Shown here: positions 6,963-37,808 of the stretch, piece after piece
Layout of the letters: the number at the start of each line of letters is the position of its first letter
Position numbering within the stretch: position 1 is the stretch's first letter
Origin: Escherichia coli
Lineage (GTDB): Bacteria > Pseudomonadota > Gammaproteobacteria > Enterobacterales > Enterobacteriaceae
Strand: one strand, 5' to 3'
Length of the DNA: 64,000 nucleotides
Assembly: GCF_003019035.1 (NCBI RefSeq)
Contig: NZ_CP027447.1
The notes under the pieces: model-generated
Seen by the model: only the letters and a program-made list of their open reading frames with translations
What the model was told of the DNA's origin: nothing
The model's database searches: none
Made by a program: the position numbers and the translations under genes

Positions 6963-8351
6963 TTATTTTTGGCTGAACTTCCGCCGACCATAAACCAGCC
7001 AGGTCAGTAGCACGCAAACGATGTAGAAGATTAAAAACACTTTCATCGCGCCCACCGGAGAGCCGGTCATATTGAGCGACATGCCAAACGCCTGCGGAAT
7101 AAAAAAGCCGCCCACTGCGCCAATGGCTGAGATAAAGCCCAGAGCGGCTGCCGTTTCGGTGACGGCTTCTCTTTGAGCTTGCTCATCACTACCGCCTTTC
7201 ATCTTCACCCGATAAATGGTTATCTGGCGAAAGATGACGGCGATCATCTGGAAAGTAGAACCACTTCCCAGACCCGCGGTCAGAAACAGCCCCATAAATA
7301 CGGCGTAAAATGCGATGAAATTACCGGAGCCTGTGCCCGGTAAGGTAAGGAACAGCAGGGCGCTGAAAATCGCCATAAAAATGAAGTTGATCAACGTCAC
7401 CCGCACGCCGCCGAATTTATCGGAAATAGCACCACCAACCGATCGCGCGATGGCACCGATAAATGGGCCAAAGAACGCCAGGCGCAGAATATTCACATCC
7501 GGGAACTGAGTTTTCGCCAGCATGGCAAAACCCGCAGAAAAACCGATAAACGAACCGAAGGTGGCAAGGTAAAGCAGGCTCAGCAGCCAGAGATGCAGGC
7601 GTTGTAACACTGGCAGCTGGTCGGCAATTGACGCGCGTGAACTGGCGATATCATTCATCCCTGACCAGGCGGCGATCGTGGCAATCGCCAGTAATGGCAC
7701 CCAAATCCATGCGGCATTCGCCAGCGACATCACCGAACCGTCGGCCTGCGGTACGCCATTGACGCCGAGAAAGGCAAATACGGGTACAAAAATGACCAGC
7801 GGTGCAACCAGCTGCATCACACTTACACCTAAGTTTCCTAATCCGCCATTAATCCCAAGTGCGCTCCCTTGTTTGGCTTTTGGGAAGAAGAAACTGATAT
7901 TGCCCATGCTCGAAGCAAAGTTCGCACCTGCAAAACCGCATAGCAAAGCGATAACGATAAATATCCCAAAAGGAGTATTCGGATTCTGCACGGCAATTCC
8001 GAGCCAGACGCAAGGAATAATCAGGATTGCAGTACTAAAAACCGTCCATCGGCGTCCACCGAATATAGGCACCATAAAGGAGTAGGGGACACGCAATAAT
8101 GCGCCAGAAACGGAGGGTAATGCGGTTAATAAAAAGAGTTGATCGGTAGTGAAATTAAAACCGATTTTATTGAGATTAACAGTAACTGCGCTAAATAGCA
8201 TCCAGACACAGAAGGCAAGAAGTAGACAACTGACTGATATCCAGAGGTTTCTTCGTGCAATATGTTTTCCTTTATTTTCCCAGAAGGCCGGATTTTCTGG
8301 TTTCCAGTCGCGTAAAAGATAACGACTATTTTTCTCATTTTGCAGTGCCAT
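6963..8351 (-). CDS. narU: Nitrate/nitrite transporter (MFS, NarK family)
   Basis: ORF 6963..8393; probable start at ATG 8349-8351 (MALQNEKNSRYLLRDW), about 462 aa; multi-pass membrane protein upstream of narZ. Confidence 0.85.
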   Translation of the reverse strand: MALQNEKNSRYLLRDWKPENPAFWENKGKHIARRNLWISVSCLLLAFCVWMLFSAVTVNLNKIGFNFTTDQLFLLTALPSVSGALLRVPYSFMVPIFGGRRWTVFSTAILIIPCVWLGIAVQNPNTPFGIFIVIALLCGFAGANFASSMGNISFFFPKAKQGSALGINGGLGNLGVSVMQLVAPLVIFVPVFAFLGVNGVPQADGSVMSLANAAWIWVPLLAIATIAAWSGMNDIASSRASIADQLPVLQRLHLWLLSLLYLATFGSFIGFSAGFAMLAKTQFPDVNILRLAFFGPFIGAIARSVGGAISDKFGGVRVTLINFIFMAIFSALLFLTLPGTGSGNFIAFYAVFMGLFLTAGLGSGSTFQMIAVIFRQITIYRVKMKGGSDEQAQREAVTETAAALGFISAIGAVGGFFIPQAFGMSLNMTGSPVGAMKVFLIFYIVCVLLTWLVYGRRKFSQK

Positions 8352-28310: not shown

Positions 28311-28490
28311 TGTATTGATTCACTTGAAGTACGAAAAAAAACCGGGAGGACATTGGATTATTCGGGATCTGATGGGATTAGATTTGGTGGGGCTTGCAAG
28401 CCTGTAGCGCAAATTTTAGTCGTTAATCAATGAAACGCGAAAGATAGTAAAAAATTGCTTTTGTTTCATTGAAAATACGAAAAACAAAAA
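28311..28490 (+). repeat. Prophage left end (attL) with transposase-binding sites L1-L3
   Basis: Terminal TG; end-binding repeats TGATTCACTTGAAGTACGAAAA (28317-28338), TGAAACGCGAAAGATAG (28431-28447), TTGTTTCATTGAAAATACGAAAAAC (28461-28485). Confidence 0.75.
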
Positions 28491-35234: not shown

Positions 35235-35758
35235 TGTTTTTTAAAACGTCAAATCCCGCAGCACTGCTGGCGTGGGACCAGTTTATGGCGGACTGTCTGA
35301 AACTACGCGAAGAAGCCCGCCATCTTGATAAGGTTCTGGGTTGTGGTTGCCGGTCAGTATTCAGCACAGGTATTGGTGGGCGTTATTTTCATGGTGTGAA
35401 CTTTCCGGGGAATGAGCGCCCTTTCTCGCGGGAGCTGTGGACCGTACAACGGCCCGCATCAGGTAACAGTTGCAGGCCTAGAACTTCGCGGATACCTGTT
35501 CATCTCAGGGAGCAGGCAAAAGAGCTGGCGAAAATATGGCAGGAGAATATTCCGGTCACTTATGCCCGCACAGATGCTCTTTTACCCGCACTGGGACTGG
35601 ATTTCAGCGCAACAATATTCGGGCCGCTCCGGTGGTTCCGTGTTGGTGATGTGATTTACGTCATGACGGGGATGACACCCGCACAGGGCTGCATGACGGA
35701 AATCCTGTCCGATGAATTCATGAAGGCAAAGATTGCGTTAAAGGGGGCCGCTAAATGA
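35234..35758 (+). CDS. Early-region hypothetical protein
   Basis: ORF 35195..35758; likely ATG 35234 (MFFKTSNPAALLAWDQF) with AGGAGG RBS at 35221, overlapping upstream stop. Confidence 0.5.
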   Translation: MFFKTSNPAALLAWDQFMADCLKLREEARHLDKVLGCGCRSVFSTGIGGRYFHGVNFPGNERPFSRELWTVQRPASGNSCRPRTSRIPVHLREQAKELAKIWQENIPVTYARTDALLPALGLDFSATIFGPLRWFRVGDVIYVMTGMTPAQGCMTEILSDEFMKAKIALKGAAK

Positions 35759-36423
35759 AAGAACGTGGCGTTGCTTTTAATGACGATATGGTCAGGGCAA
35801 TTCTCGAAGGAAGAAAGACGCAAACACGCCGCCCGGTAAAAAATGTCGGACACGATAACTGTCTGGTTATCCATCGTAACGGTGTTTATACCCACGTTAT
35901 GGATGCACCTGAGCATGGTTTATGCCCGTTCGGTAACGTTGGTGATCGCATCTGGGTCCGTGAAGCGTGGGCAATATTAGGCAATGAGGATGGTTGCAGT
36001 GTGGACTGGAACGGCAACCTTTGTCATGGCGATGAGAAGAAGGCAGCAAGGATTTATCGGGCAAGTTGTGAACAAAAGCCTGGTGATTACGGTCTGTGGT
36101 CAATACCTGATGATGCTGACTGGAAACCTCGCACTGTGAATGAAAAGTTTGATGGCAGGTGGTGCCCATCTATCCACATGCCGCGCTGGGCGTCGCGCAT
36201 TCTGTTGGGAATAACCGACGTGCGTGTGGAACGGCTGCATGATATTAGCGAGGCAGATGCGAAAGCGGAAGGCGCATTTCCGGCGACGTACAAAATTACG
36301 CCACCGGAAGCTGTTTATCGCGTTGGTTTTGGTGATATCTGGCGCGGTATTTATGGGCAAGATAACTGGCTGTCTAATCCGTGGGTATGGGTAATTGAGT
36401 TTAAGCGTATTCAGGAAGCATAA
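35755..36423 (+). CDS. Conserved prophage protein (ASCH/PUA-like N-terminal motif suspected)
   Basis: 222-aa ORF with N-terminal MVRAILEGRKTQTRRP and GDRIWVREAW motifs, recurrent in prophage proteins. Confidence 0.5.
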   Translation: MKERGVAFNDDMVRAILEGRKTQTRRPVKNVGHDNCLVIHRNGVYTHVMDAPEHGLCPFGNVGDRIWVREAWAILGNEDGCSVDWNGNLCHGDEKKAARIYRASCEQKPGDYGLWSIPDDADWKPRTVNEKFDGRWCPSIHMPRWASRILLGITDVRVERLHDISEADAKAEGAFPATYKITPPEAVYRVGFGDIWRGIYGQDNWLSNPWVWVIEFKRIQEA

Positions 36424-36425
36424 CT

Positions 36426-36767
36426 ATGAGCAAATCACTTAATGCACGTTGTATTCGCCGTTGGGAAGTCAGATTTAAGCCTGTTTGTGATTCAAAAGTT
36501 AGCCCTCACATGCGTAAAAGCTTTTTGCGTGGGGTGCGTGAATTAGGGCTTATTACGGCTGAAAACATGGTTGAAAGCATGGCTGAGAAAAACGCCAGGT
36601 TTGATTACGACGGCAAGGACACAGGCTGGTCACCGGAGTTTTCTAACTGGTATGCAACATGCCGAGAAAAGTATTGTAAAGAGGCCCGCGACTATCTGGA
36701 TGAAGAAGTCACAAACGATGAGATCGATGAAGAAATCAGAACTGAGCTAGAGTATTGGAATGACTAA
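36426..36767 (+). CDS. Early-region hypothetical protein with acidic C-terminal tail
   Basis: 113-aa ORF ending DYLDEEVTNDEIDEEIRTELEYWND. Confidence 0.45.
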   Translation: MSKSLNARCIRRWEVRFKPVCDSKVSPHMRKSFLRGVRELGLITAENMVESMAEKNARFDYDGKDTGWSPEFSNWYATCREKYCKEARDYLDEEVTNDEIDEEIRTELEYWND

Positions 36768-36837
36768 TCTGGCCGATATGACCGGAAAGTGTTTCAGCGA
36801 TACAAGCGGTGTGGTAGCACCGCTTTTTAAAGGTATG

Positions 36838-37392
36838 ATCATGAGTCGCACATCCCTGATTAAATTAATCCATGTCGCCCGTCGTGATCTACAACTCGAC
36901 GACGATACTTACCGCGCTTTTCTGATGCAGAAAACGGGCAAAATCAGTTGCCGCGAGCTGACGGTAACGCAACTGGAACAGGTGCTCGATGCCATGAAAG
37001 AACGCGGCTTTAAGAAGCTGAATAAACATCCACGTCGCCGCTTTAAGGGGCATGTCACGCCCCGCGAGAAGGTATACAAAGTCTGGCAGCAGATGGCAGA
37101 AGACGGTTTTATTACCGATGGCGGTGATGTGGCGCTGGATAAATATGTTCAGCGCCTGACGGCGAAACGTAATGGCGGACAGGGTGTTTCCACGCTGGCG
37201 TGGTGTCATGGCGACACCCTGTTGATTGTTCTCGAAACTCTCAAGCAGTGGCATATCCGCTGTATTCGTGAAGCCTTTTCCCGTCACGGGCTTCCGTTGC
37301 CGGTCAGTCCGTCCGGGCGTGAACTGCGCGGCTATGATGCCATGACGGCGGCTTATGCCCATGCCAGAAAGACACGGAGGATGGCACAATGA
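36838..37392 (+). CDS. gemA: GemA-like protein
   Basis: ORF 36760..37392; probable internal start MIMSRTSLIKLIHVARRDLQLDD; sits immediately upstream of mor as in Mu. Confidence 0.6.
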   Translation: MMSRTSLIKLIHVARRDLQLDDDTYRAFLMQKTGKISCRELTVTQLEQVLDAMKERGFKKLNKHPRRRFKGHVTPREKVYKVWQQMAEDGFITDGGDVALDKYVQRLTAKRNGGQGVSTLAWCHGDTLLIVLETLKQWHIRCIREAFSRHGLPLPVSPSGRELRGYDAMTAAYAHARKTRRMAQ

Positions 37393-37783: not shown

Positions 37784-37808
37784 AAAGCCGGTTAATCCGG
37801 CTTTTTTT
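37784..37808 (+). terminator. Rho-independent terminator after mor (end of early transcript)
   Basis: AAAGCCGG-TTAA-CCGGCTTTTTTT. Confidence 0.7.

Follow-up and report, generated by a model that had tools for sequence, protein, structure and literature searches.

The window analysed here is a 64,000-nucleotide (nt) stretch of the Escherichia coli contig NZ_CP027447.1 (assembly GCF_003019035.1), and the subject of this work is an early-operon gene of the Mu-like prophage that it carries. The gene is a 222-codon open reading frame (ORF) on the + strand, running from an ATG at 35755 to a stop codon at 36421-36423 and encoding a protein of 222 amino acids, which we assign to an enlarged YqfB-type form of the ASCH fold. 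The start codon shares bases with the stop codon of the gp12 homologue upstream (ATGA), an arrangement suggestive of translational coupling, and a Shine-Dalgarno-like sequence precedes the ATG; a second ORF, of 113 amino acids, begins 2 nt past the stop codon. Measured against a homologue of 90% identity on a metagenomic phage contig, the gene shows a ratio of nonsynonymous to synonymous substitution rates (dN/dS) of 0.10 at a dS of 0.43. The protein matches PHROG 874, a family of unknown function, with an E value of 3.9e-86, and an exhaustive HMMER scan of 1.84 billion representatives of 50%-identity clusters yielded 42,709 relatives at E ≤ 1e-3, of which 30,923 reach E ≤ 1e-10. The low dN/dS, the PHROG 874 match and the number of relatives show that this is no chance frame; it is a real gene under purifying selection. 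A first-pass annotation, made from the letters of this DNA, had described a recurrent prophage protein family, as the PHROG 874 match and the 42,709 cluster representatives bear out, and the strings that it quoted are all present in the protein (MKERGVAFNDDMVRAILEGRKTQTRRPV, residues 1-28; GDRIWVREAW, residues 63-72; VRVERLHDISEADAKAEG, residues 156-173).

The Mu left end, TGTATTGATTCACTTGAAGTACG, has a single exact occurrence in the window, at 28311 (28311-28333). From this position on, the window is a Mu-like prophage, and the upstream part (1-28310) is E. coli chromosome; the prophage continues past the right end of the window, so that its mom end lies outside the view. Between 34000 and 38000 the DNA matches Escherichia phage PhiR68_1 from end to end with 97.5% identity, whereas the identity to Mu, about 97%, covers only 72% of the length, namely the part outside a mosaic cassette. 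Homology to Mu is lost near 35722, at the 3' end of gp12, and regained near 36805, upstream of gemA, the counterpart in Mu (NC_000929) being at about 7440-8210. This break indicates that the 222- and 113-amino-acid ORFs stand in place of Mu gp13, gp14 and gp15 (E14, E15), which occupy the same gp12-gemA slot in the semi-essential early region of Mu but have no homology to the cassette found here; the slot has been filled by a cassette of different origin. All genes from ner through mor are co-oriented, and the first strong-stem terminator-like hairpin lies just after mor, at 37784-37804, with none earlier. Because the ORFs are co-oriented and tightly packed and are followed by a strong hairpin only after mor, we place the 222-codon gene on the early transcript, in agreement with the transposable-phage early operon that had been suggested for it.

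The assignment of the protein rests primarily on its predicted structure. An AlphaFold2 model built from a 142-sequence family alignment, with a mean predicted local distance difference test score (pLDDT) of 93 and a predicted template modelling score (pTM) of 0.86, shows a five-stranded PUA-like β-barrel with a helix between β1 and β2, which is the defining arrangement of the ASCH superfamily. In Foldseek searches, the top 16 matches in the PDB were all ASCH proteins, and viral "ASCH domain" proteins were returned from BFVD. On the model, 98 of the 102 residues of E. coli YqfB (N4-acetylcytidine amidohydrolase; PDB 1TE7, 9KYF-9KYH) superpose at 2.0 Å with 26% identity, and the order of secondary-structure elements is that of YqfB element by element, interrupted by two inserts. 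The first-pass annotation had supposed a possible ASCH/PUA-like nucleic-acid-binding fold and had named structure prediction and a profile search as ways of checking it. The former supports the fold, whereas the latter does not: the 222-residue protein has no ASCH match in Pfam, even at E ≤ 10, and thus does not reach the gathering score of PF04266 (21.2 bits), and NCBIfam returned nothing. By sequence comparison the phage family is tied to Pfam ASCH transitively, through distant homologues. When PF04266 was compared with 10 phage homologues, that of Vibrio phage Cla passed the threshold (23.1 bits) and six scored 14-18 bits in the correct register. Taken together, we hold the assignment to the ASCH fold and its YqfB-like branch with high confidence.

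Searches with full-length sequences did not reveal the relation to YqfB. Neither phmmer nor the full-length profile of the 142 family sequences found YqfB or a convincing ASCH protein in the PDB, BLASTP against YqfB gave no match, and hhalign of the full-length profile against YqfB aligned only the first 23 residues. The link emerged when the two insertions were taken out of the profile, with their boundaries set from the model and the gap pattern of the family. The resulting core profile of 117 positions, searched against 177,635 distinct PDB sequences, recovered only two entries, both YqfB, with E values of 0.6 and 0.9 that are not significant alone, and hhalign aligned it with YqfB (sequence confirmed against PDB 1TE7) over 71 columns with a probability of 85% and an E value of 6e-6. 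The relation is therefore undetectable by BLASTP and marginal in a profile search. Both alignments pair Lys21, Thr24 and Arg26 with the residues of the same number in YqfB and Glu172 with Glu74; further pairings are Gly63-Asp64 with Gly36-Asp37 and Asp168 with His70, and the family consensus TLEIT pairs with TIEVT of YqfB. A phmmer match of residues 128-158 (36136-36228) to the N-terminus of the ASCH domain of human TRIP4 (E = 0.012) covers a strand and a helix in a register different from that of the fold assignment. Since no internal repeat was detected between the N- and C-terminal halves (hhalign probability 0.4%) and the model contains a single barrel, we take this match as likely due to chance and not to an internal duplication. 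Seven longer homologues (284-383 amino acids) carry extra parts in which no Pfam domain was found.

The motif GRKTQTRR, which had been flagged at the N-terminus, proved to be the defining ASCH octapeptide. It satisfies the definition GxKxx[E/T/S]xR for the α1-β2 junction (bioRxiv 10.64898/2026.02.27.708502) in its Thr form, and lies in the same register as GRKTITIR of YqfB; within it lie the presumed catalytic Lys and Thr, together with the presumed oxyanion Arg. YqfB hydrolyses N4-acetylcytidine (ac4C) and other N4-acylcytosines; its K21A, T24A and R26A variants are inactive and E74A is 100-1000-fold slower, and its authors proposed a Thr-Lys-Glu triad with the Arg as oxyanion hole (PMC6972931). 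By alignment, the phage protein has the counterparts of the Thr24-Lys21-Glu74 triad and of the oxyanion residue Arg26. In the 142-sequence alignment, Lys21 is present in all 142 sequences, Thr24 in 139, Arg26 in 140 and Glu172 in 138, next to Gly19 in 136. None of the four putative catalytic residues varies among 11 homologues encoded by phages of Escherichia, Edwardsiella, Klebsiella, Pseudomonas, Rhizobium, Vibrio, Flavobacterium, Salinibacter, Roseburia and Pseudanabaena, whose hosts belong to the Proteobacteria, Bacteroidota, Rhodothermota, Firmicutes and Cyanobacteria. YqfB also resembles the phage protein in strand β3 (GD..V) and in the C-terminal strand (VIEFK). This conservation argues for an enzyme rather than a mere nucleic-acid binder, which qualifies the earlier supposition.

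The phage protein departs from the minimal single-domain architecture of about 100 residues that is typical of the YqfB type. YqfB has 103 residues, and the excess in the 222-residue protein is accounted for by two inserts of about 33 and 72 residues, together about 105, that are absent from YqfB. The second extends over residues ~75-147 in the model and includes a central segment of hypervariable length, in which Tyr101 is the sole conserved residue. In the allele carried by L007, an E. coli phage-plasmid-like contig (5001-5612), this segment is swapped wholesale for unrelated sequence while the flanks are nearly identical, which points to a surface or specificity region that is exchanged as a module. 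The PSIHMPRWASR motif that follows the segment, used as a search pattern, recovered 583 viral relatives. Coordinates of the features are collected in the table.

Table. Features of the 222-codon gene and its cassette (positions in the window; residues of the 222-amino-acid protein)
Feature	Position	Strand	Residues	Basis
Mosaic cassette, ~1.08 kb, between gp12 and gemA	35722..36805	+		alignment to Mu NC_000929, annotation tables
Shine-Dalgarno-like AAGGGGG, 7 nt before the ATG	35741..35747	+		read from sequence
ORF of the enlarged YqfB-type ASCH-fold protein (PHROG 874)	35755..36423	+		
ASCH octapeptide G19-R-K21-T-Q-T24-R-R26, YqfB-type GxKxxTxR	35809..35832	+	19-26	alignment, conservation
Insertion 1, between β2 and β3, ending in C57-P58-[YF]-G60	35836..35934	+	~28-60	alignment, conservation, model
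Strand β3, GDRIWVRE, aligned with YqfB G36-D37...V41	35941..35964	+	63-70	
Insertion 2, variable central segment	35977..36159	+	~75-135	gap/conservation profile, L007 allele
Near-invariant P138-S-I-H-M-P-R-W-A-S-R148, family-specific, leading into β4	36166..36198	+	138-148	conservation
Helix SEADAKAEG, with E172 aligned to Glu74 and D168 to His70 of YqfB	36247..36273	+	165-173	profile alignments
C-terminal strand WVWVIEFK, compare YqfB YVIEFK	36382..36405	+	210-217	direct comparison, conservation
113-amino-acid ORF (PHROG 6675, unknown function)	36426..36767	+		

We propose that the gene encodes an active acyl-base amidohydrolase of the YqfB type, and on the analogy with YqfB we give this somewhat better than an even chance. 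In such an enzyme, Thr24 would be the nucleophile, activated by Lys21, with Glu172 acting as acid and Arg26 stabilising the oxyanion. The bond cleaved would be the amide between an acyl group and the exocyclic amine of a base, for which N4-acetylcytosine is the best precedent, and the inserts bearing the CP[YF]G and PSIHMPRWASR motifs would enlarge the substrate site, probably for a polynucleotide. The altered pocket residues described below and the roughly 105 additional residues suggest that the natural substrate is not simply a free nucleoside. Candidate substrates are ac4C34 in the elongator tRNA-Met of the host, or an acyl mark that a GNAT-type enzyme of the host has added. It has been reported that all 19 of the ASCH proteins tested removed ac4C34 from E. 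coli tRNA in vitro; viral ASCH proteins fall into the Glu-type group in the same survey, which assayed no phage protein (bioRxiv 10.64898/2026.02.27.708502). That ac4C in tRNA is the physiological target of the phage protein seems possible, although we lean against it. The role in host nucleic-acid metabolism that the first-pass annotation suggested is a suggestion from the context of the gene.

Several observations weigh against this proposal. The negative Pfam ASCH and BLASTP results mean that support from sequence searches is weak, and a long-gap pairwise alignment with YqfB beats only 1991 of 2000 shuffles. Asp27, invariant in YqfB, is replaced by Pro here and by Pro, Ile or Val in the family; the invariant His70 is replaced by a conserved Asp168; and the invariant Tyr89 corresponds to Tyr200 here and to Tyr or Asn in the family. 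As these three of the seven YqfB-like invariants are not kept, the substrate pocket must differ. The protein is slightly acidic (isoelectric point 6.4) and not basic, and a general capacity to bind nucleic acids is therefore not evident. At position 152 it has Gly (codon GGA, 36208-36210), where 118 of 121 close relatives have Glu; PhiR68_1 likewise has Gly152, and the position aligns with Glu54 of YqfB and varies in distant members. No enzyme assay of any member of the phage family was found in the literature searched, nor were functional data found in that literature on the family, on PhiR68_1, or on phages together with ac4C or TmcA. We considered whether Gly152 might be a sign of inactivation or decay and rejected this: although the substitution is lineage-specific, the position is variable in distant members and the dN/dS is 0.10.

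Annotated phages carry the gene in early accessory regions, with recombination genes on one side and xis/int on the other, and in some of them DNA methyltransferases, dCMP deaminase, Lar-like restriction-alleviation genes or HNH endonucleases adjoin it. We took a rough census of neighbours within 3 kb at 78 IMG/VR loci, for which mechanically called ORFs were grouped by BLASTP and the representatives of the groups were scanned with Pfam. The most common neighbour was an integrase (33 loci), and the others were a YqaJ exonuclease (17), Dam (16), Ead/Ea22 (15), an excisionase (14), MT-A70 (13), a DUF3799 nuclease (11) and RecT (10). A HAD/PNKP-type phosphatase was found at 5 of the loci (among L025-L104), always immediately upstream. 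As the sample is biased to proteobacterial prophages and lacks a background control, these associations are leads only. The phosphatase also stands immediately upstream of the gene in a P1-like record (L003, 2788-3294), and a second adjacent paralogue is present at 13 of the 78 loci (L029, L042, L060, L063, L068, L069, L071, L072, L075, L084, L088, L096 and L101).

It is conceivable that the protein does not catalyze a reaction but reads a modified base, such as N6-methyladenine in DNA, its PUA-like barrel binding the base in partnership with orphan DNA adenine methyltransferases encoded nearby, with a role in regulation or anti-restriction. ASCH domains are repeatedly fused to, or in operons with, N6A-methyltransferases (Iyer et al., PMC4738411), and in the census Dam or MT-A70 lies within 3 kb at 29 loci and is the immediate neighbour at 10. 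However, such a reader does not need the near-invariance of the Lys, Thr, Arg and Glu that are catalytic in YqfB, and no methyltransferase adjoins the gene at the Mu-type locus. Early-left regions are, moreover, generally rich in methyltransferases, so their adjacency may be incidental, and we regard a non-catalytic reader as unlikely. A virion role, implied by the name "morphogenetic protein" that several UniProt homologues bear, is hardly credible: the gene is found in early, recombination or integrase-proximal regions rather than in structural modules, the fold indicates an enzyme or reader domain, and no experimental basis for the name could be traced in the literature searched. Nor do we expect a ribonuclease for host RNA turnover like ZmASCH of Zymomonas, which cleaves single-stranded RNA. 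The octapeptide of ZmASCH is of the GKER (Glu) group, that of the phage family has Thr, and the combination of a GKER octapeptide with closest structural similarity to ZmASCH is not found in the phage protein; this reading is very improbable.

Another proposal would retain the chemistry of YqfB and direct it to a different target, either the products of acylation by GNAT toxins or defence systems (N-acetyl-aminoacyl-tRNA or acylated bases) or an N6-acyl adenine in DNA, such as the glycyl-deoxyadenosine (glycyl-dA) intermediate made by Mu Mom. The retained catalytic set, together with the changes at the substrate-binding Asp27 and His70 of YqfB and the roughly 105 added residues, would fit such a shift. 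An ASCH protein is found with almost every (PIN)-GNAT-EVE operon (PMC7641849), the product of Mom on adenine is an N-acyl exocyclic amide (PMC13219725), and the gene occurs in accessory early regions, where Lar-like restriction-alleviation genes adjoin it in some phages. On the other hand, no PADLOC or anti-defence annotation was found; a PADLOC search at E ≤ 0.01 returned no match for the 222-residue protein or for its three neighbours. As for Mom, canonical Mu has it and lacks this gene, most carriers of the gene lack Mom, and the gene is early whereas mom is late, which makes this variant weak. We give the shift to another target a small chance, and a YqfB-type acyl-base amidohydrolase remains the reading that we prefer.

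The cassette is 100% identical to part of the chromosome of E. coli S6 (NZ_CP107134.1), and intact copies are rare in E. coli, with a coverage of at least 80% in 14 of 5,426 complete genomes. Another 236 records, of plasmids about 48 kb or about 90-100 kb in size that are probably phage-plasmids, hold diverged copies (80-90% nucleotide identity). On this evidence, Mu-like phages exchange accessory cassettes of the gp12-gemA slot with phage-plasmids. The 113-amino-acid ORF that completes the cassette is 66% identical to the gene after the homologue in L007; it is co-transferred among enterobacterial phages and absent beside distant homologues. A fixed two-gene system with this neighbour was rejected, because the pairing is limited to enterobacterial phages. 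The 113-residue product has a strongly acidic C-terminus and no match in Pfam or PADLOC. Downstream, the longest ORF of gemA (36760-37392, 210 amino acids) overlaps the 113-amino-acid ORF, and the Mu-type start ATGAGTCGC (MSRTSLIK...) is found at 36841; the 210-residue call, which is the same in the PhiR68_1 annotation, probably over-extends the N-terminus.

We also compared the protein with other known relatives. With the ASCH family (Pfam PF04266; TRIP4/ASC-1, EOLA1, TthASCH, PH0355, 3S9X) it has in common the fold, the octapeptide and a cleft lined with Lys and Arg. Most ASCH members, including the viral ones of the survey cited above, are of the GKER (Glu) type, whereas the phage family is of the GKTR type. 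DUF3850 proteins of phages (PF12961) are also small PUA/ASCH-like barrels encoded in early or accessory regions, and they gave weak structural matches in BFVD. They have, however, no significant sequence match to the 222-residue protein and lack the PSIHMPRWASR and CP[YF]G motifs. DUF3850 proteins have about 77 residues and are often fused to ParB-CTPase domains (PMC12704722). In contrast to YqfB, the protein described here is phage-borne and encoded in an early operon, and its YqfB-like activity is a prediction.

The fold assignment is already known from the annotations of homologues, which include "ASCH domain protein", "YqfB-like protein of E. coli, ASCH domain", "PUA domain-like protein" and "ASCH domain-containing N4-acetylcytidine amidohydrolase", and some E. 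coli copies are labelled "ASCH domain-containing protein" in RefSeq. What is new is the argument, made residue by residue, that the whole phage family conserves the YqfB catalytic set, together with an account of the two insertions, of the motifs in them and of how this cassette of a Mu-like phage arose as a mosaic. For the window itself, the outcome is an improved annotation.

For the family, the consequences may be wider. It might be that the protein is a phage "eraser", an early enzyme that strips acyl marks from host or phage nucleic acids, although we think this rather unlikely at present. If it were true, the phage might strip ac4C34 from host tRNA-Met to alter decoding or reverse acylation by GNAT-type toxins or defence systems, the exchangeable central insert would tune target recognition, and the family would form a very large viral branch of Thr-type ASCH proteins, which the survey did not place among viruses. 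PHROG 874 is a big phage family of unknown function, with about 43,000 clusters at 50% identity, and is found among temperate phages whose hosts span at least six bacterial phyla; the link to YqfB makes this very large family directly testable. If its members act on tRNA, phages would be added to the recently proposed ac4C erasers, which would open a new route of host takeover or counter-defence.

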